In this document: piece after piece, positions 3,586 to 57,048 of the stretch
Layout: the number at the start of each line of letters is the position of its first letter
Position numbering within the stretch: position 1 is the first letter of the stretch
Assembly (NCBI GenBank): GCA_023130975.1
Contig: JAGMAD010000003.1
Coordinates: 129,692-193,691 of the forward strand
Length of the DNA: 64,000 nt
Source of the DNA: Candidatus Parcubacteria bacterium
GTDB lineage: Bacteria > Patescibacteriota > Minisyncoccia > Minisyncoccales > JAGMDC01
Direction of reading: 5' to 3'
Notes under the pieces: model-generated
Databases searched by the model: none
The model's input: only the letters and a program-made list of their open reading frames with translations
Told to the model about the DNA's origin: nothing
Made by a program: the position numbers and the translations under genes

Positions 3586-3620
3586 AAGAACCTGTCTCGC
3601 TTTGCTCGGCAGAACCTTGA
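3586..3620. repeat. AGAACCTTG-family small repeat unit (AAGAACCTG-N-CAGAACCTTGA)
   Basis: Same unit recurs at >=13 loci in the window (see findings). Confidence 0.6.
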
Positions 3621-3834: not shown

Positions 3835-4599
3835 ATGACACGGATTATTTCCATCGCCAATCAGAAAGGCGGAGTTGGAAAATCAAATGTTGCAGTTAAT
3901 CTTCCGGTTTTTTTAAGCGCTAAGGGAAAGAAAGTTTTGTTAGTGGATATGGATCCTCAGGCAAATGCTACTTTGAGTTTAGGCATTAACTGCCGCAATT
4001 TGCCTCTTTCTATTTATAATGTTTTAATGGACCAGATTACTCCTTCAGCTATTATCAGGAAGACCTCGTTTTTTGGATATGATATTATGCCGGCTTCTCC
4101 GGATTTGGCTGGTGCTACTGTAGAATTAGTAGAAGCAAAAAATCGAGAGTTCAAATTAGCTCAAATTTTAAAAAAAGTTGAAGAACCATACGATTTTATT
4201 ATCATTGATTCTCCTCCGAGTTTAGGAATTCTAACCCTTAATACCTTAGTTGGTTCCAAAGAGGTTTTAATTCCGGTTCAATGCGAATATTTGGCTTTGG
4301 AAGGATTAGGACAACTTTTAGATACAATTGCCTTAGTGAAAAATAATCTTGGTCAAGATTTAAAAATTGCCGGCGCTCTATTAACAATGTATAATAGAAA
4401 AAATCGTCTTTCCAGGGACGTAGCTAAAGAAGTTAGAAGGAATTTTCCTGGCTATGTCTTTGACAGCGTTATTCCCAGAAGCGTGGCTTTAGCTGAAGCG
4501 CCCAAATATGGCCAGACCATTTTACAATATGCTCCCGGCTCTCAAGCAGCCAAGGCCTATAGAGAATTAGCCGAAGAACTTATCAACAGAAATGACTAA
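3835..4599 (+). CDS. parA: ParA/Soj chromosome-partitioning ATPase
   Basis: N-terminal KGGVGKS deviant Walker A and ParA-like length. Start placed at the ATG downstream of the tRNA. Confidence 0.85.
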   Translation: MTRIISIANQKGGVGKSNVAVNLPVFLSAKGKKVLLVDMDPQANATLSLGINCRNLPLSIYNVLMDQITPSAIIRKTSFFGYDIMPASPDLAGATVELVEAKNREFKLAQILKKVEEPYDFIIIDSPPSLGILTLNTLVGSKEVLIPVQCEYLALEGLGQLLDTIALVKNNLGQDLKIAGALLTMYNRKNRLSRDVAKEVRRNFPGYVFDSVIPRSVALAEAPKYGQTILQYAPGSQAAKAYRELAEELINRND

Positions 4600-4724
4600 T
4601 AACTAATTCCTAATTACTAATCAAATCCCAATGACCAATGACTAAATGACTAAAAACTTTTAGACATTAGACATTTTGGAATTAGACATTGATTAGAAAT
4701 TAGACATTAGAAATTAGAAATTCC
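4600..4724. repeat. direct-repeat (iteron-like) spacer between parA and parB
   Basis: There are 3 copies of AATGAC(C/T)AA and 4 copies of TTAGACATT plus AGAAATT repeats. parA and parB are usually adjacent. Confidence 0.4.
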
Positions 4725-10037: not shown

Positions 10038-10901
10038 ATGAAAAGGTCTAAAAGTTTTGTTTCAGTAATATTGGGGCTGTTATTTTTAGTAAATGTTTTG
10101 GCTTGGATAGAAGTTTATAATTTGACTCAATCGCAGGTTCTGGAAGTAACTTTTTTCGATATAGGACAAGGAGATAGTATTTTTATCCAAACCCCTCAAA
10201 AGCATCAGATTTTAATTGACGGTGGACCTGATTCGACTATTTTAGAGAAATTAGCAGAAGAAATGCCTTTTTGGGATAGAACTATTGATTTAATAATTCT
10301 TACTCATCCGGAACATGACCACGTAGCCGGCTTACTCGAGGTTCTTAGAAGATATAAAGTAGAGCAGATTCTCTGGACCGGCATTAAACGGGATACAGCC
10401 GAATATAGAAAGTGGCAGGAGTTAATTAAGAAAGAAGAGACAGAGGGAGCAAAAATATTTATAGCCCAGTCCAATCAAAGAATATTAACGAGAAATGTTC
10501 TCGTTAATATTTTATCTCCATTTGAAAATTTGGAGGGTCAAGAAGTTAAAAACACCAATAATAGCTCTATTATTGCTCGTTTAGTTTTTGGAAACAATAC
10601 TTTTCTCTTTACTGGCGATGCTTACAAATCAGTAGAAAGAGAATTGATAGAAAGAGACATTACTTTAAATTCAGATGTTTTAAAAGTTGGGCATCATGGA
10701 AGCAAGACATCGTCTTCTGAAGAATTTATCCAAGCAGTCAGTCCGGAAATTGCTGTTATTCAATGCGGGAAAGATAATCCATATGGCCATCCTTATCCAG
10801 AAACATTGGCAACCCTTGAAAAATTTGGTATAAAGATTTTAAGAACAGACCAAAATGGAGACGTTAAGATTATTTCCGATAGAAATAATCTTAAATTTTA
10901 A
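10038..10901 (+). CDS. membrane-anchored metallo-beta-lactamase fold protein (ComEC/Rec2 C-terminal domain-like)
   Basis: N-terminal TM helix, HPEHDHVAG (HxHxDH) and VGHHGSKTS motifs. Confidence 0.55.
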   Translation: MKRSKSFVSVILGLLFLVNVLAWIEVYNLTQSQVLEVTFFDIGQGDSIFIQTPQKHQILIDGGPDSTILEKLAEEMPFWDRTIDLIILTHPEHDHVAGLLEVLRRYKVEQILWTGIKRDTAEYRKWQELIKKEETEGAKIFIAQSNQRILTRNVLVNILSPFENLEGQEVKNTNNSSIIARLVFGNNTFLFTGDAYKSVERELIERDITLNSDVLKVGHHGSKTSSSEEFIQAVSPEIAVIQCGKDNPYGHPYPETLATLEKFGIKILRTDQNGDVKIISDRNNLKF

Positions 10902-14587: not shown

Positions 14588-14766
14588 AATATGATGGAAA
14601 CATTAGATTTTATTTTCGCTTTTATCCTGGTCTTACTTTTAATATACCTTTTACTAATTTGGTAAAAACTTGTTTTGGAATTTAATAAAAGGTTGATTCC
14701 TTGACAAATAAATAAAAAACTTTTAACTTTAAACTATAACTTTTCACTTTTCAATTCGAGCTTTGC

Positions 14767-14803
14767 GAGAATCAAGGTTCTTGCTGAAAGCGAGGTTCTT
14801 ATT
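14767..14803. repeat. AGAACCTTG-family repeat unit (inverted)
   Basis: gagaatcaaggttcttgctgaaagcgaggttcttatt upstream of fusA. Confidence 0.55.
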
Positions 14804-14824: not shown

Positions 14825-16930
14825 ATGCGACAGTATCCCATTGAAAAAACAAGAGACATCGGTATTATCGCCCACATTGACGCTGGGAAAACAACCGTAA
14901 CTGAACGGGTGCTTTTTTATACTGGTATTTCTCATAAAATTGGCGAGGTTCATAAAGGAGAAGCAATTATGGACTGGATGGCTCAAGAAAAAGAGAGGGG
15001 AATTACTATCACTTCAGCCGCTACAACTTGCTTCTGGTCTCCAGAAGAGTATGCGGCAAAAGAGAAAACCCAGGAGCATCGTATCAACATTATTGATACA
15101 CCTGGCCATATTGATTTTACTGCTGAAGTTCAGCGCTCCCTTAGGGTCTTAGACGGTGCTGTAGTGGTTTTTGACGGAGTAGCCGGAGTAGAACCCCAAT
15201 CAGAGACAGTTTGGCGTCAGGCAGACAAATTTAAAGTTCCCAGAATTTGCTTTATAAACAAACTTGATAGGATAGGAGCTAACTTTGAAAAAAGTTTTGA
15301 TTCCATTGGCCAAAAACTTTCTCCTAATGCTGTAGCTATGCAAATACCTATTGGCGCTGAGGACAAACTTGAAGGAGTGATTGATTTAATGAAGATGAAA
15401 GCCCTGAAGTTTGAAGGCGAACTTGGTGAAAAAGTAGTAGAAGAAGAAATTCCCCAGGATTTAAAAGAAAAAGCAAAAGAATGGCGGAAGAGAATGGTAG
15501 AGAAAATTGCCAGCGAAGATGAAAAACTTTTAGAAAAATACTTGGCTGAAAAAGAAACCTCAGAACAGGAATTAAGAGAAGTTTTAAGAAAGGCCTGTAT
15601 AGATTATAGACTTATTCCAGTATTTTGCGGTTCAGCTTTAAAAAACAAAGGTGTTCAGCCGCTCTTGGACGCCATTGTTTGTTATCTTCCTTCTCCTGCT
15701 GATCTTCCGCCAATAGTTGGTAAAGATCCTAGAACCAATGAGGAAATGGAGAGAAAATCTGACGACAACGAGCCATTTACCGCTTTGGCCTTTAAAGTTG
15801 CTACTGATCCTTATGTAGGAACTTTAACTTATTTTAGGGTTTATTCAGGCAGTTTAAAAAAGGGCTCTTATGCTTTAAATACTACTACTGGAGAAAAAGA
15901 ACGATTAGGCAGAATTTTAAGAATGCATGCTGCTGAAAGAGAGGAAGTAGATGAACTTTTTGCTGGTGATATTGCTGCTACAGTTGGTTTGAAAAATACT
16001 AGTACTGGCCATACTTTATGCGATGAATCTCATCCTATTATCTTAGAAGAGATTACCTTTCCAGAGCCGGTTATTGGCATTAGAATTGAGCCAAAGACCA
16101 AAGCTGACCAGGAAAAAATGAGTTTGGCTTTAAAAAAACTTTCAGAGGAAGATCCTACTTTTAAGATGAAAAGCGATGAAGAAACCGGCGAAACCATTAT
16201 TTCTGGCATGGGCGAACTTCATCTTGATATACTTTGCGACCGGATGAAAAGAGAATTTAAAGTTGAAGCAAATATGGGCAGGCCTCAAGTGGCTTATAAA
16301 GAAACAATTAGAACCGAAGCAGAAGCAGAAGGCAAATATATCCGCCAGTCAGGTGGCCGGGGCCAGTATGGCCATGTTTGGCTTCGCATAGAACCAAAAG
16401 AAAGAGGAGAAGGTTTTGAATTTATCAATGAGATTAAAGGAGGAGTTATTCCACGTGAATTTATCCCAGCAGTAGAAAAAGGAGTAAAAGGAGCAAAAGA
16501 AAAAGGAGTGGTTGCTGGTTATCCAGTGATAGATATTTCTGTTGCTCTTTATGACGGCTCTTTTCATGAGGTTGATTCTTCAGAAATAGCTTTTAAAATT
16601 GCTGCTTCTATTGCTTTTCAAGAAGGGGTTAAGAGAGCAAAGCCAGTACTCCTTGAGCCGATTATGAAATTAGAAGTAGTTATTCCTGAAGATTTCTTAG
16701 GAGATGTAATTGGGGATTTGAGCGCCAGAAGAGGAAAAATAGAAGAAACCAAAGAGCGATTGAATATGAAAATAATTGATACTAAAATTCCTTTAGCAGA
16801 GATGTTTGGCTACGCTACTTCTCTCCGTTCTTTGACAGAAGGAAGGGGAACGTTTACTATGGAGTTTGACCATTACGAACCAGTACCAGAAAACATTGCC
16901 CAAGAAATTATAGAAGGAAAGAGGAAATAA
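14825..16930 (+). CDS. fusA: elongation factor G
   Basis: [10 protein letters not shown]1 motif and the full EF-G domain series. Confidence 0.9.
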
Positions 16931-17020
16931 TGTTTGACATCAGCGCTGTTTTAAATATAAAATAAGAGTAGAAATTCTTGAAGAGTCGGTTTTGAGGCAT
17001 AAATAAAAAACTACAAAAGT

Positions 17021-18384: not shown

Positions 18385-18470
18385 TTTAGATAATAGATAA
18401 TAGATGATAGATAAGTATTGACATAATTCTTTTATTTTATTACCATTAAAATATACAAAAATTAAAAAAT

Positions 18471-18599
18471 ATATAAAATAAAGATTTAGATAATAGAGAT
18501 TAGAATTTAGGTAATTTTTTATCTAACATCTAACATCTAATATCTAAAATCCAATTATGGCTGAGAAAGAAAAATTTGAAAGAGGAAAAACCCATCTTA
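18471..18599 (+). repeat. copy A of a 129-bp perfect duplication (tuf promoter, leader and first 14 codons)
   Basis: Identical to 19688-19816. Confidence 0.85.
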
Positions 18600-19627
18600 T
18601 AGGTTTAGTTTTAGCATTCATTATAACTATATTTATCTTTAATAGTTTTTATAGTACAATTTTTGCAGAAGATTCTTCATTAGAAAATATCTTCGCTCTC
18701 GTTACAATTGGAGATATAATCCAGAATCAATCACTATATGAAGGAAAGATTGTAACTATTTCTGGTAAATATGGTGGTTGGGGGCACAAAGAAGGAAACA
18801 TTCCCGGATGTGAGAGTGGACCACCAGTAACCAGAAGTGATTGGTGTATCTATGACGAAACTGGTTGTATTTATGTAGCAGGAGCGGAAATTTTAGAGTG
18901 TGGTGAATATACAACTGAGATAGACATCTATAAATATTGCTTTAATAACTTTGACCCTTCTGGAGGAGAAAGTATGGGTACTGATATGATAATAAAAGGA
19001 AGAGTTAAGATTAGCGATAAAGGTGTTACTTATGTAGGAAGAATAGTATCTCCAGTTAAACCTATTGAAATAGTAATACCAGAAGATAAAATGCCAAAAG
19101 AAATACAAGATGCAACGATAAAGTCAGTTACAATTAAACCTGGAGAGCCAATCAGAGTAAAAGCAGAGCGAGAAGAAGACGGGAAGATTATAAAAGATGT
19201 AACAGTGACTGAATATGAATCACCAATTAAACTAAATCTGACAACTAAAGATGGCTTAAAAGAAGTCGTTGTAAGGCAAGGAACGGATGAGCTAAAATTG
19301 ATTTCCAAAAATGTAACTGCAAGAACTAAAAATGAATTAGAAGTAGAAGAGGACACAATATACTTAAAGACAAAAACAGGGAGAAAAGAAATTAAGATAA
19401 TGCCTGATGTTGCATCACAAAAAGCAATAGAGAAACAAGAATTACACTATGTAGAAAGTATTGAACTTAAGGATGTTGGTAAGCCCATTTATGAAGTTAA
19501 TGGAGTTAAAAAAGTAAAATTATTATGGTTTATTCCAATTGACATGAGCATAAAAACAGAAATAGATGCTGAAACGGGAAAAGTTGAAAAGATTAAAAAG
19601 CCTTGGTGGAGTTTCTTAGCTTGGTAA
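18557..19627 (+). CDS. chimeric ORF: EF-Tu N-terminal 14 aa fused to a TM-anchored extracytoplasmic beta-rich protein
   Basis: The first 43 nt are identical to tuf ([14 protein letters not shown]). A TM helix and a ~320-aa Lys/Glu/Val-rich domain of unknown function follow. Confidence 0.5.
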   Translation: MAEKEKFERGKTHLIGLVLAFIITIFIFNSFYSTIFAEDSSLENIFALVTIGDIIQNQSLYEGKIVTISGKYGGWGHKEGNIPGCESGPPVTRSDWCIYDETGCIYVAGAEILECGEYTTEIDIYKYCFNNFDPSGGESMGTDMIIKGRVKISDKGVTYVGRIVSPVKPIEIVIPEDKMPKEIQDATIKSVTIKPGEPIRVKAEREEDGKIIKDVTVTEYESPIKLNLTTKDGLKEVVVRQGTDELKLISKNVTARTKNELEVEEDTIYLKTKTGRKEIKIMPDVASQKAIEKQELHYVESIELKDVGKPIYEVNGVKKVKLLWFIPIDMSIKTEIDAETGKVEKIKKPWWSFLAW

Positions 19628-19687: not shown

Positions 19688-19816
19688 GAATATAAAATAA
19701 AGATTTAGATAATAGAGATTAGAATTTAGGTAATTTTTTATCTAACATCTAACATCTAATATCTAAAATCCAATTATGGCTGAGAAAGAAAAATTTGAAA
19801 GAGGAAAAACCCATCT
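19688..19816 (+). repeat. copy B of the 129-bp duplication (native tuf promoter/5' end)
   Basis: Identical to 18471-18599. It is preceded by 3x AATATAAAATAG tandem repeats. Confidence 0.85.
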
Positions 19817-20975
19817 TAATATTGGTACTATTGGTCACGTAGACCATGGTAAAACCACTCTTACAGCAGCTATTCTGCATGTTTTAAGGTTAAAAGGTCT
19901 TAAGGCATCAGAGAAAGCAGTGGAGCAAATTGATTCTGCTCCAGAAGAAAAAGCCCGTGGTTTAACTATTAACATTGCCCATTTAGAGTATGAGACAGAT
20001 AAAAGACACTATGCTCATATTGATTGTCCGGGCCATGCTGATTACATTAAGAATATGGTTACTGGTGCCGCTCAAATGGACGGAGCAATTTTAGTGGTTT
20101 CGGCTGCTGATGGTGTTATGCCTCAAACCAGAGAGCATATTTTGCTTGCTCGCCAAGTAGGATTATCTCAAATAGTGGTGTTTTTAAATAAATGCGATAC
20201 TGTAGATGATCCTGAGATAATTGATTTAGTTGAGTCAGAAGTAAAAGAGCTTTTAAAGAAATACGAATTTCCAGGAGATGAAATCCCAATTGTTCGCGGT
20301 TCAGCTCTTAAAGCCCTGGATGTAAAATCAGCTGACGATGAAGCCGCCAAACCAATTTTGGATTTAGTTAAAGCAGTAGATGATTACTTTCCTGAACCAA
20401 CTCGGGATATTGATAAACCATTTTTAATGGCTGTTGAGGATGTTTTCTCTATTGCTGGAAGAGGAACTGTTGCTACTGGCAGGATTGAGCGAGGAATAGT
20501 TCATCCAAACGATGAGGTAGAAATTGTTGGTTTTAAACCTACTCAAAAAACAGTGGCAGTGAGCGTGGAAATGTTTAATAAGATGCTTGATGAAGGAAGA
20601 GCCGGTGATAATGTCGGAATTTTACTTCGCGGACTCAAGAAAGAAGAGGTGGAAAGAGGACAAGTTTTAGCAAACCCCGGCAGCATTACTCCTCATACTG
20701 AATTTGACGGTGAAATTTATGTTTTAACCAAAGAAGAAGGCGGAAGACATTCTCCTTTTTTTGCCGGTTATAAGCCGCAATTTTACATTCGAACTACTGA
20801 TGTTACTGGAGATGTTGCTTTGCCAGAAGGGACAGAAATGGTTATGCCTGGAGATACTGTTAATCTAAAAGTTAAATTAATAGCTCCGGTTGCCCTTCAA
20901 GAAAAACAAAGATTTGCTATAAGAGAAGGAGGCAAGACCGTAGGCGCAGGAGTAGTGACGAAGATCATTAAGTAA
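19776..20975 (+). CDS. tuf: elongation factor Tu
   Basis: [18 protein letters not shown] and NKCD motifs; 399 aa. Confidence 0.9.
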
Positions 20976-21504: not shown

Positions 21505-22107
21505 ATGAAGTTTATCTTGGCAAAAAAATTAGAAATGTCACAGATGTTTGATGAAAAAGGCAAGGTCATTCCAGTGACCTTAATTGAAGCCGGACCTTGT
21601 TTTATCACTCAAATAAAAAACAAAGACAAGGATAAATATGAAGCAGTTCAGCTTGGTTTTGAAAAAATAACCAAACAGAAGAAAATAAAAAAAACAATGA
21701 AAGGAAAAGAATATAAATACATCAGAGAATACAAAATTGACGAGAACATTTCTCGTCAATTAAAGGTGGGAGATGAAATCAATGTTTCTGTTTTTCAAGA
21801 AGGGGATAAAGTAAAAATTTCTGGAATTTCTAAAGGAAAAGGATTTCAGGGAGCAGTAAAAAGATGGGGATTTCATGGAAGAAACGCTACTCATGGAGTT
21901 AAGCATGAACAAAGAACATTAGGTTCAGTTGGAAGTTCTTATCCAGAAAGAGTAATTAAAGGAAAAAAAATGCCCGGTAGAATGGGTGCCGAGCGAGTCA
22001 CAGTTAAAAATTTAAAAATAGCAAAAATTGACAAAGAGAATAATCTATTAGCAGTGAAAGGCGCAATACCAGGCCGACGCGGCACATTGCTTGAAATTAG
22101 AGGATAA
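21505..22107 (+). CDS. rplC: 50S ribosomal protein L3
   Basis: L3 pattern (GKGFQGAVKRWGFHG). Confidence 0.85.
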   Translation: MKFILAKKLEMSQMFDEKGKVIPVTLIEAGPCFITQIKNKDKDKYEAVQLGFEKITKQKKIKKTMKGKEYKYIREYKIDENISRQLKVGDEINVSVFQEGDKVKISGISKGKGFQGAVKRWGFHGRNATHGVKHEQRTLGSVGSSYPERVIKGKKMPGRMGAERVTVKNLKIAKIDKENNLLAVKGAIPGRRGTLLEIRG

Positions 22108-22216
22108 TTTCCAGAATTTCTAATTTCTAATAAATTTCTAATTCTTTAATTTTTAATTGAAAATTGGAGCATTGAAAATTGATTGAAAATTGATAATTGA
22201 TAATTGAAAATTTATC
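22108..22216. repeat. heptamer tandem-repeat spacer: (AATTTCT)n then (ATTGAAA)n
   Basis: 7-bp periodic AT repeats between rplC and rplD. Confidence 0.6.
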
Positions 22217-23350: not shown

Positions 23351-24220
23351 ATGAAAAAGTATAAACCAACAACACCAGGAAGGAGAGGAATGACCAAGGT
23401 TGAATCTTCTCAATTAACTAAGAAAAAACCTGAAAAAGGTTTGCTTTCAGTAATTAAAAAAAGGGGAGGAAGAAATCTAAAAGGAAGAATCACAATCAGG
23501 CATAGGGGCGGCGGAGCAAAAAGGATGTATAGACATATTGATTTTGGTCAGGAGAAAGTTAATATTTCAGCAAAGGTCATTGCTTTAGAATATGATCCCA
23601 ATCGTTCTGCTTTTATTGCTCTTTTGGAATATCAGGATAAACCCCCCACCACTTTTCAGGGAAAAGTGGTGGGGGGTAAAGAAAAAAGATATATTTTGGC
23701 TCCTCAAGGATTAAAAGTGGGCGATGAAATCATTATTTCAGAAAAAGCAGGACTCAAGCCGGGAAATAGAATGAAATTAAAAAATATTCCAGTCGGAACT
23801 TTGATCTATAATGTTGAACTTGAGCAGGATAAAGGAGGAGTTATCGTAAAAGGAGCGGGCACCACAGCAAAGGTTTTGGCTCAGGAAGGAAGATATACTC
23901 ATCTTGTTTTTCCTTCTTCTGAAATTAGGAAAGTGCCCAAGGAATGTTTTGCTTCAATAGGCATAGTTTCCAATCCCGAACATAAGTATGTTACAATAGG
24001 AAAGGCAGGTAGAACACGTTATAAAGGCAAAAGGCCCCATGTTAGGGGAACGGCAATGAATCCTGTTGACCATGCTCATGGCGGCGGAGAAGGAAGAACT
24101 GGGATTGGACTAAAACATCCGAAAACTGCTTGGGGTAAGCCAGCTTTAGGGGTAAAAACAAGAAAGAAAAAATGGACAGACAAACTTATTATTAAAAGAA
24201 GAAAAAAGAAAAAGAAATAA
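23351..24220 (+). CDS. rplB: 50S ribosomal protein L2 carrying a 13-aa in-frame palindromic insertion
   Basis: L2 motifs (KPTTPGRRGMT, GGGEGR). The insertion KPPTTFQGKVVGG is encoded by a perfect hairpin at 23641-23677. Confidence 0.85.
   Translation: MKKYKPTTPGRRGMTKVESSQLTKKKPEKGLLSVIKKRGGRNLKGRITIRHRGGGAKRMYRHIDFGQEKVNISAKVIALEYDPNRSAFIALLEYQDKPPTTFQGKVVGGKEKRYILAPQGLKVGDEIIISEKAGLKPGNRMKLKNIPVGTLIYNVELEQDKGGVIVKGAGTTAKVLAQEGRYTHLVFPSSEIRKVPKECFASIGIVSNPEHKYVTIGKAGRTRYKGKRPHVRGTAMNPVDHAHGGGEGRTGIGLKHPKTAWGKPALGVKTRKKKWTDKLIIKRRKKKKK
23641..23677. repeat. GC-rich perfect hairpin (CCCCCCACCACTTTT-loop-AAAAGTGGTGGGGGG) inside the rplB ORF
   Basis: The 15-nt arms are identical to the 16S h44 tip (51882-51896 / 51971-51985). 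Confidence 0.8.
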
Positions 24221-24223
24221 CCT

Positions 24224-24346
24224 AATAAATTTTCAATTTTCAATTTTCAATTTTCAATGAATTTTCAATGATTTAATTTTCAATTAGAAATTAAAGAATT
24301 AGAAATTTAATAGAAATTAGAAATTAGAAATTAGAAATTTTGGATT
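24224..24346. repeat. heptamer tandem-repeat spacer: (TTTTCAA)n then (AGAAATT)n
   Basis: Reverse-complement arrangement of the 22108-22216 element. Confidence 0.6.
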
Positions 24347-26473: not shown

Positions 26474-26653
26474 ATGAAAACAAAAGAATTACAACGAAAA
26501 TCCCAATCAGAACTTCAGCATATTTTAATAGAAGATCGTGAGAAATTACGGCAGTTGCGTTTTGATTTAGCTTCTGGTAAGGTTAAAAATGTTAGAGAAA
26601 TTCGAAAAATTAAAAAAGAAATTGCCCAAGCATTAACAATTTTAAAGCAATAG
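26474..26653 (+). CDS. rpmC: 50S ribosomal protein L29 (59 aa)
   Basis: MKTKELQRKSQSELQHILIEDREKLRQLRF... in the expected slot between rplP and rpsQ. Confidence 0.6.
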   Translation: MKTKELQRKSQSELQHILIEDREKLRQLRFDLASGKVKNVREIRKIKKEIAQALTILKQ

Positions 26654-26659
26654 TAATAT

Positions 26660-26846
26660 AAGAACCTGCCTCGCTAATGCTCGGCAGAACCTTGATTCCT
26701 TCGGAATTAAGAACCTGCCTCGCCAATGCTCGGCAGAACCTTGATTCCTGCCTGTCGGCAAGGCAGGCGCTAATGTATAAATATATAAGAACCTGCCTCG
26801 CTAATGCTCGGCAGAACCTTGAATGCTTCGCATTTAATCTTGAATT
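26660..26846 (+). repeat. three tandem AGAACCTTG-family units forming a composite ~150-bp 5'-region shared with rpmE
   Basis: Units at 26660-26695, 26709-26744 and 26787-26822. The stretch 26709-26856 is ~95% identical to the reverse complement of 45450-45600. Confidence 0.75.
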
Positions 26847-28835: not shown

Positions 28836-29222
28836 ATGGATCCTATCACTGATATGTTCAACAGAATAAAAAATGCTCAAGCCGTATTGAAACCTACGGT
28901 GAGTATTCCTTTTTCAAATTTAAAATATGAAATTGCTAAAATTTTAGAGAAAGAAAAATATGTCAAAAAAATAGAGAAAAAAAGAAGAAAAACAAAAAAG
29001 ACAATAGAAATTTCTCTTAAATATAATAAAAATATTCCGGCTATTATTGAATTGCGAAGAATCTCAAAATCAGGACAAAGAATTTATCTTCCAGTTCAGG
29101 AAATTAAGAAAGTAAAAGGAGGATTTGGTTTGTCTATTATTTCTACATCAAAAGGACTAATGACTAATAGAGAGGCAAGAAAACAGAAAGTCGGAGGTGA
29201 GATAATCGCTGAAATCTGGTAA
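28836..29222 (+). CDS. rpsH: 30S ribosomal protein S8
   Basis: MDPITDMFNRIKNAQ start. Confidence 0.85.
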   Translation: MDPITDMFNRIKNAQAVLKPTVSIPFSNLKYEIAKILEKEKYVKKIEKKRRKTKKTIEISLKYNKNIPAIIELRRISKSGQRIYLPVQEIKKVKGGFGLSIISTSKGLMTNREARKQKVGGEIIAEIW

Positions 29223-29376
29223 TCCGCTCGGGAATTAGTTTTTGGTACACGCAAATTTCTCCAGCGGAAATTTGCTGCTACTCGCGAATTACCCCCTCCT
29301 TTTGCGCAAGCGCGAAAAGGAGGGGGACCAAGCCAATTCGCTGCGGATTGTCCCAAAAACCAATTTCCTCGCTTAA
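29223..29376. mobile_element. MITE-like element with ~17-bp terminal inverted repeats and a variable GC hairpin core (copy 1)
   Basis: Ends CGGGAATTAGTTTTTGG...CCAAAAACCAATTTCCTCG. Core hairpin CCCCTCCTTTTGCGCAAGCGCGAAAAGGAGGGG. The paralog at 46502-46648 has a different core hairpin. Confidence 0.65.
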
Positions 29377-29431
29377 AATTATTCGCATATTCGCGTCATT
29401 CGCATAAATTCGCATATTCGTATTATACTTT

Positions 29432-34584: not shown

Positions 34585-34753
34585 ATAAAAAAACAAAAAT
34601 AGGGTAAAAGCATATTCGCTTGAACCCTTTATTTTTTTGAGCGAAGCGAGAAAAATCAAGGTTCTTGAGCGAAGCGCAAGGTTCTTAATTTTTTCTTTAC
34701 AAAATCTGAATAATTTATTAAGCTAAGGATAGTACACCATAAAAGAAAAAAAA

Positions 34754-37552: not shown

Positions 37553-37571
37553 AAAATCTTTAAAATTCTAT

Positions 37572-37605
37572 AAGAACCTATCTCGCTAACGCTCGGCAGA
37601 ACCTT
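37572..37605. repeat. AGAACCTTG-family repeat unit (extended ~70-bp version shared with 40973-41045)
   Basis: taagaacctatctcgctaacgctcggcagaaccttctaatt. Confidence 0.6.
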
Positions 37606-37668
37606 CTAATTATTTCGTTCGGTTAAAATACAAAAGTGAACTTTTGTATTTTACCTTCACTCATAATT

Positions 37669-40086: not shown

Positions 40087-40974
40087 ATGATAAAAGCATT
40101 AACATTAAAAGAATATGTGAAAAAAAACGATAAAGAACTGGCAGGTTTGATTGTAAAGATGGCTGGTATTGCAGAAAGAATAAGCCAGGAGCTTCCATAC
40201 AGGCGAGGCAAGGCAGATACAAAAAATGTATTCGGAGAAAAGCAATTAGTTGCAGATAAATGGGCCGATAAATTTATTATTAAAGAATTAGACAAATCAG
40301 GATTAGTTAAGGAAATGGTATCGGAAGAGCAGGAGGATGTTGTTAAGCTTAATGATAAAGCATTGTTTAGTATTACTTTAGATCCATTAGACGGTTCTTC
40401 AAATATTGAAAGCAATAATTTAGTTGGCACAATTTTTGGTATATATAAAAAAGACCTGCCAGCTAAAGGAAGGCACCAGGTAGGCGCGCTGTATATTTTA
40501 TATGGTCCCGTAATGACTTTAGTTTATGCAACAAGAAATGGAGTTAACGAATTCCTGCATACCAGAAAAGGATTTGTGCTTAAGGAGAAAAATATAAAAC
40601 TTCCAAAGCAAGGTAAACTATATGGGGTTGGGGGACTGCGTAAGGATTGGCTTCCCGGGTTTAGAAAATATATTAAGGGATTAGAAACAGAGGGATATAA
40701 ATTAAGATATGGAGGAGCATTTGTTGGTGATTTTAATCAGATTCTCCATTATGGCGGGATTTTTGCTTATCCAGCGCTTAGTACCAAGCCAAATGGGAAA
40801 TTAAGATTATTAGCCGAAAGCAATCCAATGTCATTTATTATAAAGCAAGCAGGCGGTGCTTCAACCAATGGCGCAGGGTCAATATTAGATATTGAGCCAG
40901 AAAGCATTAATCAAAGAGTTCCAACTTATGTTGGCAATAAAGGTCTCATTAAAAATTTAGAAAAAATATTATAA
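40087..40974 (+). CDS. fbp: fructose-1,6-bisphosphatase class I
   Basis: LDPLDGSSNI metal-binding motif. Confidence 0.75.
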   Translation: MIKALTLKEYVKKNDKELAGLIVKMAGIAERISQELPYRRGKADTKNVFGEKQLVADKWADKFIIKELDKSGLVKEMVSEEQEDVVKLNDKALFSITLDPLDGSSNIESNNLVGTIFGIYKKDLPAKGRHQVGALYILYGPVMTLVYATRNGVNEFLHTRKGFVLKEKNIKLPKQGKLYGVGGLRKDWLPGFRKYIKGLETEGYKLRYGGAFVGDFNQILHYGGIFAYPALSTKPNGKLRLLAESNPMSFIIKQAGGASTNGAGSILDIEPESINQRVPTYVGNKGLIKNLEKIL

Positions 40975-41008
40975 GAACCTGCCTCGCTAACGCTTGGTAG
41001 AACCTTCT
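40973..41008. repeat. AGAACCTTG-family repeat unit overlapping the fbp stop codon
   Basis: taagaacctgcctcgctaacgcttggtagaaccttct. Confidence 0.6.
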
Positions 41009-41085
41009 AATTGTTTCGTTTAGTCAAAATATAAAAATAAATTTTTCTATTTTCTCTCTCACTTACAATTATAAAAAAAATAACC

Positions 41086-42334: not shown

Positions 42335-43010
42335 TATGCTTAGTTTATCTGCCAAAATTAGAAAAGAAGAGAAATCAGGTACCCTTAGAAATAAGGGTCT
42401 TTTGCCCGCGGTTCTTTATGGGCCAAAGATAAAAAATCTTTCTTTACAGGTAGATGAAAAAGAATTTGAAAAAATTTTTAAAGAAGCAGGCGAAAGCTCA
42501 TTAATTAAGTTAAAAGTTGGTGAGGATGAATTCTTGGTTTTAGTCCATGATCTTCAAAAAGATCCCTTAAAAGGTAATTTTATTCATATTGATTTTTATC
42601 AACCCGTCCTTGACGAAGAAACTGAAGCTACTGTACCCTTAGAATTTATTGGCGAGGCAGCGGCAGTGAAAGAATTAGCAGGAACATTGGTTAAAAATAT
42701 TAAAGAATTAGAAGTAAGAGCTTTGCCTCAAAATCTTCCTCATGATATTAAAGTCAATGTGGAAAGCTTAAAAACCTTTGAAGACACTATTACAATAAAG
42801 GATTTAAAAATTCCAGAAGGGGTAAAAGTGTTAAAAGAACCGGAGGAAATTATAGCTTTAGTTACTCCTCCGGAAAAAGTAGAAGAAGAATTAGAAAAGC
42901 CAGTTGAGGAAAAAGTAGAAGAAGTAGAGAAAGTAGGCGAGAAAGAGAAAGAAGAGGAAAGAGAAGAGAAAGAGGCGGAAAAAGGCGAAGAAGAAAAAAA
43001 AGTTAGTTGA
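42324..43010 (+). CDS. rplY: 50S ribosomal protein L25/Ctc with a Glu/Lys-rich C-terminal tail
   Basis: L25 N-terminal pattern (RNKGLLPAVLYG). Confidence 0.7.
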   Translation: MKINMLSLSAKIRKEEKSGTLRNKGLLPAVLYGPKIKNLSLQVDEKEFEKIFKEAGESSLIKLKVGEDEFLVLVHDLQKDPLKGNFIHIDFYQPVLDEETEATVPLEFIGEAAAVKELAGTLVKNIKELEVRALPQNLPHDIKVNVESLKTFEDTITIKDLKIPEGVKVLKEPEEIIALVTPPEKVEEELEKPVEEKVEEVEKVGEKEKEEEREEKEAEKGEEEKKVS

Positions 43011-43046
43011 AATTTTCAATTTTCAATTTTCAATTTTCAATTTTCA

Positions 43047-44453
43047 ATGAATTTTCAATTTTCAATTTTCAAACAAGCAATTTTATTTGTTCTTATATTA
43101 TTTTTGGTCTTACCTAGTTTTTTTCTATTAGCTGAAGAAGATTTAGAAGAAATCTGCCAGATAGAAAATATTGAGAAAAAAGAAAGCGAACTTTCCAAGG
43201 AAGATTACGAAGCTTTTTTAAAGAAATGCGAAGCATATTTTGTAGAAAAAAGCAAAGAGATTGAAAAGGATATCAATAAAACTGAAGCAGAGAAAAAGAC
43301 ATTGCAAAATAAAATTTATAGTTTAAGAAAAAAAATTCAAAACTTAAATTATAAAATCAATCAGAGCAATCTAATAATAAAAGACCTTGATTTACAAATT
43401 GGAGATACCCAGTTTTCCATAGAAGAAACCGGTTTAGAGATAGAAGATTTAAAGCAGAGATTAGTAAAACTTTTACGGCTTGTTTATGAAGAAGACCAAA
43501 AATCATTGATTGAGATTTTTCTTTCAGAAGAAGAAATCTCTGATTTCTTTGATAATTTGGTAGCATTGGAAATACTTAATTCTGAGAATCAAGAAATTTT
43601 AGATAATATTAAAAGCTTAAAATCTTATTTAGAAAATCAAAAAATATCCCTGGATGAAGAAAAGGAGGACAGAGAGAATACTCTTGCTGTTTATAATTTA
43701 CAAAAACAAGAAAATGCAGAAATAAAAAAAGAACAGGAATATTTTCTCAAATTAACTGAAAAAGAATATCAAAAGTATATTGCAGAGAAGGAAGAGACAG
43801 ATAAAACTGCTTCTGAGATAAGGGCTCGGATTTTTGAATTAGTCGGTGTTGTCAAAGCTCCTACTTTTGGCGAAGCATATGAATTAGCTAAGTATGTTCA
43901 GGGCATTACAGGAATTCGTCCTGCATTTTTGTTGGCGATTTTAACCCAGGAATCAAATATTGGTAAAAATGTTGGCCAATGTTATTTGAAAAATACAAAA
44001 ACAGGTGAGGGGATTTATATTAAAACAGGAAATACAGCTCCTAAGACAATGGGTCCTAAGAGTATTCCTAAGTTTTTGAACATTACCAAAGAGTTAGGAA
44101 GAGATCCTTATAGCACGCCTGTTTCCTGCTGTATGTATTACAAGGGCAAACCCTATGGCTGGGGAGGAGCAATGGGCCCAGCCCAGTTTATTCCTTCCAC
44201 TTGGGTTTTATATCAAGATAAAATAAGAGCAGTTACTGGAACTACTCCAGATCCTTGGAACATAAAAGACGCCTTTTTAGCGTCTGGTATTTATTTAAAA
44301 GAATTGGGCGGCAGTAGAAATGAATTTAAGGCAGCCATGCATTATTTTTCCGGAAGCACTTGGACTAAATATGAAGAATTTTACGGAAGGTCAGTAATAT
44401 CCTTAGCTGATAGATATGAAAAAGATATTGCTAAGCTTGAAAGCGAGAAGTAA
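43047..44453 (+). CDS. lytic transglycosylase (SLT domain) with an N-terminal signal/TM and coiled coil
   Basis: LTQESNIG (catalytic E-S) and GAMGPAQFIPSTW motifs. The N-terminal codons come from a (TTTTCAA)n repeat. Confidence 0.55.
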   Translation: MNFQFSIFKQAILFVLILFLVLPSFFLLAEEDLEEICQIENIEKKESELSKEDYEAFLKKCEAYFVEKSKEIEKDINKTEAEKKTLQNKIYSLRKKIQNLNYKINQSNLIIKDLDLQIGDTQFSIEETGLEIEDLKQRLVKLLRLVYEEDQKSLIEIFLSEEEISDFFDNLVALEILNSENQEILDNIKSLKSYLENQKISLDEEKEDRENTLAVYNLQKQENAEIKKEQEYFLKLTEKEYQKYIAEKEETDKTASEIRARIFELVGVVKAPTFGEAYELAKYVQGITGIRPAFLLAILTQESNIGKNVGQCYLKNTKTGEGIYIKTGNTAPKTMGPKSIPKFLNITKELGRDPYSTPVSCCMYYKGKPYGWGGAMGPAQFIPSTWVLYQDKIRAVTGTTPDPWNIKDAFLASGIYLKELGGSRNEFKAAMHYFSGSTWTKYEEFYGRSVISLADRYEKDIAKLESEK

Positions 44454-45706: not shown

Positions 45707-46501
45707 ATGACGGATAAAAAAGAAACCAAAGAGAAACAAAAAAAAGAAAAGGAAACCAAAAAAGAAAAACCAAAGGAAGAAAAAAAAGAAGTTAAAAAAG
45801 TTGCCAAGAAAGCACCTGATTTTAAAATTGATGTAGATGAAATGTTGGCAGTCGGAGTTCATTTCGGTCATCGGACTTCCCGTTTGCATCCCAAAATGGA
45901 ACCATATTTAGCTGGTGTCAAGAATACGGTTCATATCATTGATCTAGAAAAAACAGCGGAAAAATTGAAAGAAGCCCTGAAGTTCATCCAGGAAATTATT
46001 TCCGAAAATAAGGTCTTGCTTTTAGTGGGGACAAAAATTCAGATTAAAGATTTAGTTAAAGAAATTGCTCAAGAATGTGAATTACCTTATGTTAACGAAA
46101 GATGGCTGGGCGGCACTCTGACTAATTTTGAAGTAATTTCAAAAAGAGTTGGATACTTAAAAGAAATAGAAGAAAAAAAGGCAAGCGGAGCATGGGAAAA
46201 GTACACAAAGAAGGAAAGGATTAAAATGAATAGGGAATTTCAGAATCTCAAGACAAAATTTGAAGGTCTTAAAACACTCTCCAGAGTTCCTGATACTATG
46301 TTTGTTTTAGATATAAGAAAAGATGATTTAGCAGTGAAAGAAGCTAAAATGAAAGGGATAAAAGTAATTGCTATTTGTGATACCAATACCGACCCTAGTT
46401 TGATTGATTATCCTATTCCAGCAAATGACGATGCTATTTCATCTGTGAAATATATTTTAGAAAAGGTTAAAGAAGCAATACTAAAAACAAAGGCAAAGTA
46501 A
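45707..46501 (+). CDS. rpsB: 30S ribosomal protein S2 with a ~40-aa Lys/Glu-rich N-terminal extension
   Basis: S2 core from MLAVGVHFGH. Confidence 0.85.
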   Translation: MTDKKETKEKQKKEKETKKEKPKEEKKEVKKVAKKAPDFKIDVDEMLAVGVHFGHRTSRLHPKMEPYLAGVKNTVHIIDLEKTAEKLKEALKFIQEIISENKVLLLVGTKIQIKDLVKEIAQECELPYVNERWLGGTLTNFEVISKRVGYLKEIEEKKASGAWEKYTKKERIKMNREFQNLKTKFEGLKTLSRVPDTMFVLDIRKDDLAVKEAKMKGIKVIAICDTNTDPSLIDYPIPANDDAISSVKYILEKVKEAILKTKAK

Positions 46502-46648
46502 TACGCTCGAGAATTAGTTTTTGGTACACGCAAATTTCTCCAGCGGAAATTTGCTGCTACTCGCGAATTGCCGAGCACTCAACAAGTTGAGTGCTCGAAC
46601 CAAGCCAATTCGCTGCGGATTGTCCCAAAAACTAATTCCCTCGCTTAA
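46502..46648. mobile_element. MITE-like element copy 2 (same TIRs as 29223-29376, different core hairpin)
   Basis: CGAGAATTAGTTTTTGG...CCAAAAACTAATTCCCTCG. Core CGAGCACTCAACAAGTTGAGTGCTCG. It starts directly after the rpsB stop. Confidence 0.65.
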
Positions 46649-50181: not shown

Positions 50182-50283
50182 AAAGATGAAAGAAATAAGG
50201 AAAGTTCTTTGAAAATTTTTAGATTAAGAATTGAGTAAATTTAATTGGTTTTTTAGAGTTGTCCCGATTTTATTTGAGAGTTC

Positions 50284-50315
<32 letters not shown>

Positions 50316-50707
50316 GATAAGGCATGCAAGTCGAGGGGTCACCTTCGGGTGGCACCGGCAAACGGGTTAGTAACACGTGGATACATACCCTAAAGACTCG
50401 TATAACTCGGAGAAATCCGAGCTAATTCGAGATAGTCTGGTAGTCTATTTTTGGAAGTCAACTATAAGAATTTTTAATTTTCAATTTCTAATTTTTATTT
50501 AATTTCTAATTTTCAATGTTTAAAAAGCAACCCTACGGGGAATCCCGAACTTCATTCGGTCTAGAAATCATTAAAAATTTATTAAAAATTAAGAATTAGA
50601 AATTAGAAATTTTCTGCGTATTTAATAATAGATAAAGTTGATTTTTAGGAATAGGCTACCAGTAAAGGTTATACTTTGTATTTCCGCTTTGGGACTGGTC
50701 CGCGGCT

Positions 50708-50743
<36 letters not shown>

Positions 50744-52018
50744 GATGACGAGTAGGGGGCATGAGAGTGTGTTCCCCAACAATGGTACTGAGAACGGACC
50801 ATACTCCTACGGGAGGCAGCAGTCGAGAATATTGGGCAATGGGCGAAAGCCTGACCCAGCGACGCCGCGTGCGGGAAGAAGGTCTTCGGATTGTAAACCG
50901 CTTTTATTAAGGAACAATCCGCCAGTCGGCGGATGAGCGTACTTGATGAATAAGGAGCCGCTAATCACGTGCCAGAAGCGTCGGTAATACGTGAGCTCCA
51001 AGCGTTATCCGGATTTATTGGGCGTAAAGCGTCCGTAGGCGGTTTGAAAAGTCTTTGGTTAAATCCTAGGGCTTAACCTTTGGACTGTCAAAGATACTTT
51101 CAGACTAGAGGGTGTTAGAGGCTGATGGAACGGTCGGTGTAGGGGTGAAATCCGTTGATATCGACCGGAACACCGAAAGCGAAGGCATTCAGCTAGTGCA
51201 ACCCTGACGCTGAGGGACGAAAGCGTGGGTAGCGAATGGGATTAGATACCCCAGTAGTCCACGCTGTAAACTATGGACACTAGCTATTGGTAGTGTCGAC
51301 CCTATCAGTGGCGAAGCTAACGCGTTAAGTGTCCCGCCTGGGAAGTACGAGCGCAAGCTTAAAACTCAAAGGAATAGACGGGGACTCACACAAGCGGTGG
51401 ATCATGTGGCTCAATTCGACGATAAACGAAGAACCTCACCAGGGCTTGACATGCTAGTGAAATCCCGACGAAAGTTGGGACTACCCACAAGGACACTAGC
51501 ACAGGTGCTGCATGGTTGTCGTCAGCAGGTGTCGTGAGACGCTCCTTTTAATAGGGAAACCTGCGCAACCCTTGCCCTATGTTTTACTTGTCATAGGGGA
51601 CTGCCCGGGATAACTGGGAGGAAGGTGAGGATAACGCCAAATCAGCATGGCCCTTTGATGCCCTGGGCTGCACACATGATACAATGGCCGGTACAATGGG
51701 CTGCTTAACCGCAAGGCGAAGCAAATCCCTTAAAGCCGGTCCCAGTTCGGATTGAGGTCTGCAACTCGACCTCATGAAGCCGGAATCGCTAGTAATCGCC
51801 AATCAGCTATGTGGCGATGAATATGTTCCTGAGTCTTGTACTCACTGCCCGTCACACCAAGAGAGCTGGCAGTACCCGAAACCCCCCACCACTTTTCGTG
51901 AAGATATTTAGATTAAGAAGAATTTTTGAAAAAGTCTATTTTAAATTCTTTTGACGGTTTATAATTCATGAAAAGTGGTGGGGGGCTAAGGTAAGGTCAG
52001 TAATATGGGTGAAGTCGT

Positions 52019-52821
52019 AGATGTAATCTACTTGTTGCGACTCTTGAAAGGCAACTTTCAGGAAAAAACTTGGCTATATGCTGGAACATCTGTGTTATAA
52101 TAGAGTAATATGAGTAAAAGTTTATACGCAGACAATCAGCAGGGAAGTCTCCGCCAGCTGGCGGATGACCCCTCAGAGACTACACGCCGAGCCCCTCTTT
52201 CTAAAAGAGAAATTCAATCTTATTTTCTTGGAGCTATACATGATGGAACATTTAGTAGTAATCAAAGATTTCGAATTTCACAGAAAGGTACCCAATGGCT
52301 TAAATTTTTACAAAAACTTTTTGGCAAACTCGGTTACAATTCATGGATTTATAAAGAAGGTAAAAACAGAAAAGTTTATGTGTTAGAAACTTTAGCAGAT
52401 TTTTTAGATTTCAGATTTGATCCTTCGCGATTAAATACAAAAGAAGAAAAGATTGGTTACATAAAAGGATTTTTCGATGCCGAAGGTGGCATTCCTAGAG
52501 ATCACAAAGCAAGATTTTATATTCAGTTGACCCAGAATGATGAAGAAAAGCTCAAAAAATTAAAAGTAATGCTTAGTGATTTAGGAATAAAAACAGGAAA
52601 AATTCATAACCCAAGCCAAAAAGTAGATCCTGATTATTGGAGAATGTATGTTTTAGCAGGTTCACAAAAAACATTCGTAGAAAAAATAGGATCATGGCAT
52701 CCAAGAAAGATAAGAACCTTGAATCAAAGATTCAAGAACCTTGATTCCTTCGGGATTAAAAATTTTAGAAAAGAGGGTGAAGATATAGTCCATGCTCTAT
52801 AGCGATATAGGGACAAATATG
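52019..52821 (+). mobile_element. group I-type intron in the 16S gene (between E. coli-equivalent U1498 and A1499)
   Basis: The 5' exon ends ...GAAGTCGT, the intron ends with G, and the 3' exon resumes AACAAGG. The intron carries a LAGLIDADG ORF. Confidence 0.65.
52110..52802 (+). CDS. LAGLIDADG homing endonuclease (intron-encoded)
   Basis: Two LAGLIDADG-like motifs, FLGAIHDGTF and IKGFFDAEGGI. Confidence 0.7.
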   Translation: MSKSLYADNQQGSLRQLADDPSETTRRAPLSKREIQSYFLGAIHDGTFSSNQRFRISQKGTQWLKFLQKLFGKLGYNSWIYKEGKNRKVYVLETLADFLDFRFDPSRLNTKEEKIGYIKGFFDAEGGIPRDHKARFYIQLTQNDEEKLKKLKVMLSDLGIKTGKIHNPSQKVDPDYWRMYVLAGSQKTFVEKIGSWHPRKIRTLNQRFKNLDSFGIKNFRKEGEDIVHAL

Positions 52822-53015
52822 AACAAGGCATGCGTAGCGGAAGCTGTGCATGGATCATTACATTCTAAAAGTGTTGACTAAAGTTGAAGAGCGAGAATTC
52901 TCTCTTTAACTTTAAGGTATTAATCGAACACCTTAAAGATCGATTTCCTTCTTCGCCTCGCTACGCGAGGTCTCGGAGGACAAACTCGGGACAACTCTAA
53001 GAAACTTCGTAAGAA

Positions 53016-56407: not shown

Positions 56408-56515
56408 ATGGGAGATTTAAATAATAAAAATTCAAATAAAATAAGAACCTGCTTCGCAGAACCTTGTTTTCTCAAATGAGAGATTCAAATAGCAAAAATT
56501 CAGATAAAATAAGAA
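56408..56515 (+). repeat. duplicated infA start region flanking an AGAACCTTG-family unit
   Basis: ATGgGAGATTtAAATAatAAAAATTCAaATAAAATAAGAA (56408-56447) versus ATGaGAGATTcAAATAgcAAAAATTCAgATAAAATAAGAA (56476-56515). The unit CCTGCTTCGCAGAACCTTG lies between them. Confidence 0.65.
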
Positions 56516-56926: not shown

Positions 56927-57048
56927 CCTTTTGCTTCGCAAAAGGAATTTCTAATTTCTAATTTCCAATCAATTTCTAATTTTCATTGAAAATTCTAAAA
57001 TTGAAAATTTAATGAAAATTGAAAATTGAAAATTGAAAATTAAATTTT
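56927..57048. repeat. terminator-like hairpin plus heptamer spacer: (AATTTCT)n then (ATTGAAA)n
   Basis: ccttttgc-ttcg-caaaagg followed by 7-bp periodic repeats. Confidence 0.55.

Follow-up and report, generated by a model that had tools for sequence, protein, structure and literature searches.

We describe a small structured element that occurs twice in a 64,000-nt window, the whole stretch analyzed here (positions 129,692 to 193,691 of contig JAGMAD010000003.1 from a “Candidatus Parcubacteria” bacterium). Copy A lies between rpsH and rplF and copy B between rpsB and tsf, and both are members of a previously undescribed superfamily in Parcubacteria/Nealsonbacteria-type genomes of the candidate phyla radiation (CPR). 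Elements of this superfamily are 135 to 170 nt long, fold into a covarying three-way junction, and follow the stop codons of their genes in the sense orientation. We tentatively read the element as an RNA module that acts in cis between cistrons, in processing, stability, or coupling, and whose turnover resembles that of repetitive extragenic palindromic (REP) and enterobacterial repetitive intergenic consensus (ERIC) sequences, a reading to which we assign a probability of about 0.4.

Both window copies begin 1 to 2 nt past a TAA stop codon, just after the stop as originally predicted. Copy A follows the stop of a Ribosomal_S8 gene (29220 to 29222) and ends 57 nt before the L6 start at 29432, and copy B follows the stop of the S2 gene (46499 to 46501) and ends 16 nt before the EF-Ts start at 46663. 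Alignment of the two showed a left arm of ∼70 nt and a right arm of ∼50 nt that differ at only 5 positions, all close to the termini, and centers of unrelated sequence. Two look-alike copies of ∼150 nt with near-identical arms are thus confirmed at these junctions. With up to 3 mismatches allowed, a 28-mer and a 33-mer derived from the arms have exactly two matches each in the window (shuffle expectation, 0.00), and a filter-free covariance-model scan of the 64 kb detected no third copy. Folding of the sense strand gave −63.3 kcal/mol for copy A and −56.6 kcal/mol for copy B (z = −6.0 and −6.8). The terminal inverted repeats and the second hairpin of the original prediction, GCAAATTTC-TCCAGCG-GAAATTTGC, are present, the former as the ∼23-nt arms of helix P1 below. 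The centers do hold unlike GC-rich hairpins, but these are not both perfect, as one unpaired G in copy A had been overlooked. The proposed ∼150-nt rod was replaced by a Y-shaped fold.

The element is not limited to these two copies. Among GTDB representative genomes, a right-arm 22-mer was found at 10 loci in 7 metagenome-assembled genomes, which are labeled as two Nealsonbacteria (one the complete 639-kb genome CP179888.1), three “Parcubacteria,” one Saccharibacteria, and one Zixiibacteriota. An independent left-arm pattern matched 48 JGI metagenome contigs. Based on 11 copies, we built a covariance model (R1) that recovered 61 copies (47 distinct) on the sense strand across 386 kb. The exact right 22-mer is present in only 11 of 31 copies found with the left-arm pattern, indicating that the scan of GTDB genomes undercounts the family ∼3-fold. 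At least 4 copies were seen in 28 kb of the complete Nealsonbacteria genome, and diverged subfamilies occur in close relatives (L050:3687-3841, L063:2971-3120 and 10612-10758, L066:4038-4175, and L067:3090-3231 and 16843-16953). One Logan contig (L004, SRR13892597) begins within an element at AGCCAATTCGC and includes two rplF copies in inverted arrangement, which is probably an assembly break or fold-back artifact.

Comparison with Rfam 15 (4,227 models, including ribozymes, riboswitches, ribosomal protein leaders, tRNA-like RNAs, and HEARO) yielded no match at the gathering threshold for the window and 14 loci and only noise at E values up to 10 for the window and family members. We detected no carrier of the element in IMG/VR, searched with both arm patterns, or in phage and plasmid collections searched with blastn, and we found no description of the family in the literature searched. 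A preprint on gLM2 reports a “feature #13341” near uS9/uS2/EF-Ts in Bacteroidota without giving its sequence; it is not comparable and is probably an S2 leader.

The consensus fold is a three-way junction of a closing helix (P1), a hairpin (P2), and an arm (P3) that carries an apical hairpin. P1 joins the first ∼23 nt to the last ∼23 nt in ∼19 pairs with a one-base bulge, and P2 has 9 to 10 pairs and the invariant loop UCCAGCG. P3 has 8 pairs, with an invariant 7-nt bulge, ACCAAGC, on its 3′ side and an apical hairpin of 15 to 49 nt above. Across the family alignment, standard pairs make up 97.5% of pair cells, and 34 of the 44 pairs, including 14 of the 19 in P1, have changed on both sides. 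The covariation score is 0.295, compared with 0.098 for shuffled alignments (0 of 500 reached the observed value) and 0.02 to 0.07 when partners were slid.

In the diverged subfamilies, the sequences of P1, P2, and P3 have been completely rewritten. For P3, the compensated changes run from GCGAATTG/CAATTCGC to GCCCCGCC/GGCGGGGC, GCAAAATT/AATTTTGC, or TCCCGTCG/CGACGGGA. The features kept in the 5′ part are the (U)CGCUCGG terminus, CCAGCG in the P2 loop, and CUCG before P3. Those kept in the 3′ part are the bulge ACC(A/G)(A/U)GC, CUGCGRA or CUCCGAA after P3 (junction J3/1, which reads CTGCGAA or CTCCGAA in the DNA of the other subfamilies), and the terminal CCUCGCUU. Insertions are tolerated in P2 (L018) and, with a length of 30 nt, in J3/1 (L067). 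The interchangeable core is the apical hairpin, which falls into recurrent types, one of them a short GC stem capped by UUC or UUCG. Copy B has a GAGCAC...GTGCTC type that recurs in L007, L040, L050 (three copies), L062, L032, L037, and L027, and the type of copy A is also found at rpsB/tsf in the close relative L023.

A mutual-information scan for tertiary pairs or pseudoknots returned only the modeled helices and correlations within hairpins. In the P2 loop, AGCG(A) has complements in the (U)CGCU found at each terminus and in the CGCUG after P3, and all of these sites are invariant. We found no complementarity between the invariant loop or bulge and 16S rRNA, and inspection of either strand revealed no hammerhead core motif. 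A resemblance of the GAGCAC hairpin to domain V of group II introns was rejected, since its stem is perfect and unbulged and only some copies carry it. A further TCCAGCG...ACCAAGCC at 40770 to 40790 is coincidental, as it lies inside a fructose-1,6-bisphosphatase-like open reading frame (ORF) at 40087 to 40974 whose L065 orthologue matches Pfam FBPase.

Genes were named by Pfam at the window junctions and elsewhere by reading ORF translations. In all 58 copies with upstream sequence, an ORF on the same strand has its end at −16 to +69 nt relative to the element, and in about 70% of copies the distance from stop to element is 0 to 2 nt. All three stop codons (TAA, TGA, and TAG) are used, and they belong to native gene ends; at four distinct loci, the ORF extends 16 nt into P1 and terminates at a TAA of P1 itself. 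Six further copies in relatives likewise lie on the plus strand between plus-strand genes. The next start codon is usually 8 to 80 nt downstream (median, about 24 nt) and has no Shine-Dalgarno sequence. This leaves too little space for a promoter, and we infer that the sense strand must belong to the operon transcript. A promoter scan gave promoter-like matches at chance level only. One copy (L011) lies between convergent genes and follows its own gene, although the 4 other genes of the contig are on the other strand.

The junctions served include rpsH/rplF, rpsB/tsf, rpsG/fusA, rplC/rplD, rplW/rplB, rpsE/rplO, rnc/rpsP, frr/rseP-like, rpsI/nuclease-like, the 3′ end of rpoB, secA/NUDIX, eno/gpmA, trxB/eno, glutaredoxin-like/gap, and pgk/recJ-like. 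At L060:871-1566, and likewise in L022, L048, L054, and L020, the element stands directly after the RNase III gene rnc, recognized by its ERLEFLGDA motif, and before rpsP. Within the complete Nealsonbacteria genome (L005:2781-4148), two small ORFs separate rpsI from the element, and the second ends in a duplicate of the S9 C terminus (...RRAPQWQKR*). This arrangement suggests that a cassette was inserted just upstream of the stop codon, duplicating the end of the gene. A family member cut by a contig end (L009:1-1540) is followed 119 nt later by an excisionase-like helix-turn-helix ORF and a convergent tyrosine-integrase-like ORF, a layout that resembles an island integrated at a tRNA.

The elements are well conserved, yet their occupancy changes between close relatives. 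At orthologous junctions, the elements are 80 to 93% identical and the flanking ribosomal protein genes are 73 to 81% identical in DNA and 62 to 73% in protein, so that the element is more conserved than the genes adjoining it. Orthologous copies persist, with compensatory changes, across about 65% protein identity. Junction occupancy nonetheless differs among genomes that share 74 to 90% RplF identity. In L063 (90% RplF identity), the element is gone from rpsH/rplF and copies are found at rplC/rplD and rplF/rplR, neither of which holds one in the window; in L066, a copy occupies rplW/rplB. The rpsH/rplF spacer of L063 is only 32 nt long and starts TAA followed by TTTCCTTGCTTAAAAT, which consists of the last 11 nt of the element and the same downstream bases. 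A deletion between AAT microhomologies has left this scar. In L005, L025, L026, and L063 (10585 to 10611 and 3121 to 3150), solo arms of one subfamily lie directly against complete copies of a different one. Copies inside one genome have common genome-specific arm variants, pointing to concerted evolution or recent intragenomic copying.

If the element is a cis-acting intercistronic RNA module, each copy would be transcribed in the sense orientation as part of a housekeeping polycistronic mRNA, and RNA polymerase would read through the folded domain. The domain would define and protect the ends of its two neighboring cistrons, the 3′ end upstream and the 5′ end downstream. The simplest route would be a structure-specific endoribonuclease (e.g., RNase III acting on P1) or a dedicated RNA-binding protein, which would recognize the invariant loop, bulge, and termini. 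A closed P1 would keep the upstream stop and the next start close in space. The family turns over among intercistronic junctions in the manner of REP, ERIC, or miniature inverted-repeat transposable elements (MITEs). The original prediction had offered a non-autonomous transposon, a terminator or attenuator, and a structured RNA, and the last is the best supported, given very strong covariation without a match to a known family.

Three signals are strand specific: the invariant orientation, the asymmetric set of conserved unpaired motifs, and the predominance of UUC over GAA among apical loops (12 hairpins and 1 hairpin, respectively, on the sense strand). Other observations weigh against the module. 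G-U pairs and A-C mismatches are equally frequent (30 and 30), a parity that would be unusual under selection on a single RNA strand, and the antisense strand is predicted to be ∼3 kcal/mol more stable in 33 of 42 copies, the slightly better antisense folding arising because the sense loops are C-rich. The pairing statistics, wobble pairs included, thus fail to demonstrate that selection acts on the sense strand as RNA. The changed occupancy in L063 means that the element is dispensable at any one junction. In addition, a plain exonuclease block needs no invariant loops or bulges, and the recognizing factor is postulated for this reason.

A possible but doubtful explanation is that the element is selfish and mobile but non-autonomous (MITE-, REP-, or mini-intron-like), with a fold that promotes its own spread. 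It would survive only where harmless, i.e., after a stop, in the sense orientation, and with P1 joining the stop to the next start. Variable occupancy, the L063 scar, the solo arms, the genome-specific arm variants, and the parity of G-U and A-C all fit this explanation, as do central hairpins exchanged between loci (copy A carries the rpsB/tsf hairpin of L023). The transposon of the original prediction therefore stands as far as a repeated family with terminal inverted repeats and gain, loss, and nesting is concerned. Against it, we found no shared direct repeat of ≥3 nt that would mark a target-site duplication; across 36 boundary offsets, the best counts were 4 of 39 copies (k = 3) and 10 of 39 (k = 2). 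An all-sense orientation is not expected from random insertion of DNA, and orthologous copies that outlast divergence with compensatory changes do not resemble decaying MITEs. A low copy number and absence from the phage, plasmid, and IMG/VR collections also argue against a selfish element. No transposase, reverse transcriptase, or HUH gene was present among the Pfam-annotated genes of the window and of the ribosomal protein regions of five relatives; other loci were read as ORF translations only and not screened. Should the element instead act as DNA, with single-stranded hairpins recognized by a strand-specific enzyme (an HUH/Y1 transposase as in IS200/IS605 and REP, or a recombinase), its orientation would follow replication rather than transcription. 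Selection for Watson-Crick pairs only would fit the G-U and A-C counts and antisense folds that are at least as good, replication bias could mimic sense bias because genes in these genomes are strongly co-oriented (58 of 63 in the window), and the L009 copy adjoins an excisionase/integrase pair. Yet the L011 copy follows its gene on the minority strand, no conserved 4- to 5-nt target sequence precedes the element, no HUH gene was seen among the genes screened, and no att-like repeat of the element end lies within 8 kb near the L009 integrase. To our knowledge, no REP or IS200 end is built as a three-helix junction with invariant loops, and we regard action at the DNA level as quite unlikely.

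A catalytic or ligand-sensing RNA, either a self-cleaving ribozyme at cistron boundaries or a riboswitch-like junction that senses a global signal for growth-rate genes, seems unlikely to us, although junction, bulge, and loop nucleotides are invariant while the helices covary freely. The variable or optional peripheral hairpin, the tolerated insertions (L018 and L067), and multiple copies at gene ends would suit such an RNA. Bacterial hammerhead and twister ribozymes are likewise multi-copy at gene ends. The window encodes RelA/SpoT, and genes of the kind served by the element are under stringent control in Escherichia coli. Against this stand the lack of any Rfam ribozyme or riboswitch match even at E values up to 10 and the lack of a hammerhead core by inspection. 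Riboswitches do not hop between junctions, and the copy between convergent genes has no downstream gene to regulate. A more speculative version, which we likewise consider improbable, is a self-cleaving ribozyme or mini-intron-like mobile RNA that would cut or excise at CGCUCGG and CCUCGCUU, punctuate CPR operons, and spread via an RNA intermediate; such spread would account for the sense orientation and gene-end position of every copy. Transcription termination or attenuation, suggested by a stable GC-rich structure directly after genes, is very unlikely. No T tract follows the structure (the 3′ flanks are AAAATT and AAAACT), and a terminator scan called neither copy, whereas canonical hairpin-plus-T terminators are present elsewhere in the window. 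Copies lie inside essential operons, with start codons 8 to 25 nt downstream and no room for a promoter.

Several known systems resemble the element in part. ERIC/IRU and REP/BIME sequences of enterobacteria, like BOX and Correia/NEMIS sequences, are reported to affect mRNA stability and the translation of neighboring cistrons. ERIC and REP are short, repeated, imperfect palindromes in transcribed intergenic DNA, often after stop codons and with strain-variable occupancy, as is the element. Unlike them, the element is a strictly sense, low-copy-number three-way junction with an invariant loop and bulge and compensatory helices, and it showed no sequence similarity to them in the plasmid collection searched; the search did not extend to the E. 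coli genome collection. It also lacks a TA or any other target duplication. REP/BIME units are 20- to 40-nt imperfect palindromes with a 5′ GTAG-type tetranucleotide and a RAYT (TnpA-REP) gene, whereas the element is a 135- to 170-nt three-helix junction with termini CGCTCGG and CCTCGCTT, and no RAYT gene was seen among the genes screened. Like the element, MITEs are ∼150 bp long, occur in several copies, vary in presence or absence, and are bounded by terminal inverted repeats, but they do not share its lack of target-site duplication, its 100% sense orientation, its conservation beyond the flanking genes, or its covarying internal helices.

The RNase III sites of phage T7 (R0.3, R1.1, and others) are co-oriented and read through by polymerase, and their cutting leaves protective hairpin ends. 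The likeness to this family of co-oriented structured elements between cistrons is here one of anatomy only, including a P1 duplex of ∼20 bp; T7 sites are single ∼60-nt hairpins with an internal loop, whereas the element resides in cellular CPR genomes and is evolutionarily mobile. In our reading, the element would function much as these T7 sites or REP/ERIC stabilizers do. Intervening sequences (IVSs) of rRNA are sporadic stem-loop insertions in highly expressed transcripts that are removed or tolerated through RNase III processing of a closing helix. They lie inside 23S or 16S helices and not, as here, between protein cistrons. Small self-cleaving ribozymes (hammerhead, twister, twister-sister, hatchet, pistol, and HDV-like) are also multi-copy, with a conserved core, covarying helices, and optional stems, but the element has no covariance-model match and no known catalytic core motif. 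The palindromic elements (PATE) derived from IS200/IS605 have a conserved 4- to 5-nt 5′ target, subterminal hairpins, and a TnpA (Y1 HUH) partner, whereas the bases 5′ of the element are native stop codons plus 0 to 2 variable nt and no TnpA was seen among the genes screened. Integron attC sites (R″/R′ core sites RYYYAAC...GTTRRRY, in a cassette array beside intI) differ in their ends, and the hosts of the element are essential ribosomal protein and glycolysis genes. The element lacks defining features of MITEs (a target duplication and insertion in either orientation), terminators, REP, IS200-type palindromes, and attC sites and appears to be a new family among intergenic repeated structured elements.

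The CPR (Patescibacteria) represent a large, almost unculturable share of bacterial diversity whose post-transcriptional biology is essentially unknown. The element offers a compact, easily synthesized RNA candidate from this group, with 34 covarying pairs, an invariant loop, bulge, and termini, and a fixed position at the stop codons of ribosomal, translation-factor, and glycolytic genes. If it serves in processing or coupling, it would reveal how polycistronic expression is organized where a Shine-Dalgarno system is lacking, and if it proved to be a catalytic or mobile RNA, it would represent a new class of ribozyme or mobile RNA. The features of both window copies are listed in Table 1.

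Table 1. Structural features of element copies A and B in window coordinates
Feature	Position	Strand	Pairing partner and support
Copy A, whole element	29224-29374	+	Covariance model 137.5 bits, E = 3e-34; Pfam flanks Ribosomal_S8 and Ribosomal_L6
Copy A, P1 5′ strand GCTCGGGAATTAGTTTTTGGTAC	29226-29248	+	Partner 29350-29372; single-sequence and consensus folds
Copy A, P2 hairpin (loop TCCAGCG, 29260-29266)	29251-29275	+	8 of 10 P2 pairs covary
Copy A, junction J2/3 TGCTACTC	29276-29283	+	≥97% conserved; mostly inside the metagenome search pattern
Copy A, P3 5′ strand GCGAATTA	29284-29291	+	Partner 29334-29341 CAATTCGC; compensated rewriting in other subfamilies
Copy A, variable apical hairpin CCCCCTCCTTTTGCGCAAGCGCGAAAAGGAGGGGG	29292-29326	+	7 of 7 modeled pairs covary
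Copy A, 3′-side bulge ACCAAGC	29327-29333	+	Near-invariant in copies ascertained by the left-arm pattern only
Copy A, junction J3/1 TGCGGATT	29342-29349	+	Conserved among copies ascertained by the left-arm pattern
Copy A, P1 3′ strand GTCCCAAAAACCAATTTCCTCGC	29350-29372	+	Single-sequence and consensus folds, covariation; last 11 nt form the scar in L063
Copy B, whole element	46503-46646	+	Covariance model 140.1 bits; Pfam flanks Ribosomal_S2 and EF_TS
Copy B, P1 5′ strand	46505-46527	+	Partner 46622-46644; single-sequence and consensus folds, covariation
Copy B, P2 hairpin (loop TCCAGCG, 46539-46545)	46530-46554	+	Single-sequence fold, covariation
Copy B, P3 5′ strand GCGAATTG	46563-46570	+	Partner 46606-46613; single-sequence fold, covariation
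Copy B, variable apical hairpin CCGAGCACTCAACAAGTTGAGTGCTCGA	46571-46598	+	Recurrent GAGCAC...GTGCTC type
Copy B, bulge ACCAAGC	46599-46605	+	Conserved across family copies
Copy B, P1 3′ strand GTCCCAAAAACTAATTCCCTCGC	46622-46644	+	Single-sequence fold, covariation

Other repeats also mark the spacers of this genome. In most intercistronic spacers, a heptamer particular to the spacer is repeated in two inverted arrays, e.g., (TTTTCAA)n...(TTAGAAA)n, as at window positions 4582 to 4723, 22092 to 22213, 24219 to 24340, 43009 to 43090, 56930 to 57042, and 58528 to 58657 and at L064:1977-2074. These arrays fold into long, regularly interrupted hairpins that begin at the stop codon. The rpsH/rplF spacer of L064, with ACGAAT/ATTCGT arrays, folds at −36 kcal/mol (z = −7). 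With long hairpins in most other intercistronic spacers of this genome and its relatives, intercistronic duplexes look like a general feature of these organisms, a setting that suits the proposed RNA module. The interval from copy A to the rplF start (29377 to 29428) is filled by direct ATTCGCA/ATTCGTA heptamer repeats. Such heptamers also fill this interval 3′ of family members L060, L031, L056, L020, and L066, and thus in several unrelated genomes.

The 16S rRNA gene (50270 to 52037) contains an inverted heptamer-array hairpin in its 5′ domain (50460 to 50612), which is probably responsible for the greater part of the ∼235 bases by which the gene exceeds the Rfam model and looks like an IVS-type insertion akin to the intercistronic hairpins. 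Further on (52019 to 52860), the gene is interrupted after ...GAAGTCGTA by an intron with a LAGLIDADG ORF (52110 to 52802). The 3′ exon (about 52822 to 52855) ends in GGATCATTACATTCT and lacks the canonical CCUCC anti-Shine-Dalgarno sequence, consistent with the absence of Shine-Dalgarno sequences upstream of genes.

A second after-stop repeat, AAGAACCTGCCTCGCTAATGCTCGGCAGAACCTTG, occurs at 26651 to 26837 (three tandem units), 37563 to 37622, 40964 to 41023, 56434 to 56466, and ∼3590 to 3610, with inverted copies near 14760 to 14800 and 34640 to 34690; unlike the three-way junction element, it is thus found in both orientations. Its core, CCTCGCT-AAT-GCTCGG, resembles the 3′ terminus of that element joined to the 5′ terminus, as in a circular permutation. 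A general link between the element and this repeat (AAGAACCTGCCTCGCTAATGCTCGGCAG...) could not be established, as the repeat is found only in this genome among all loci fetched. Finally, an exact duplication of ∼130 nt (18470 to 18599 and 19689 to 19818) comprises the tuf leader and the first 14 tuf codons, and its upstream copy is fused in frame to a 356-amino-acid PepSY-like ORF (18557 to 19627).

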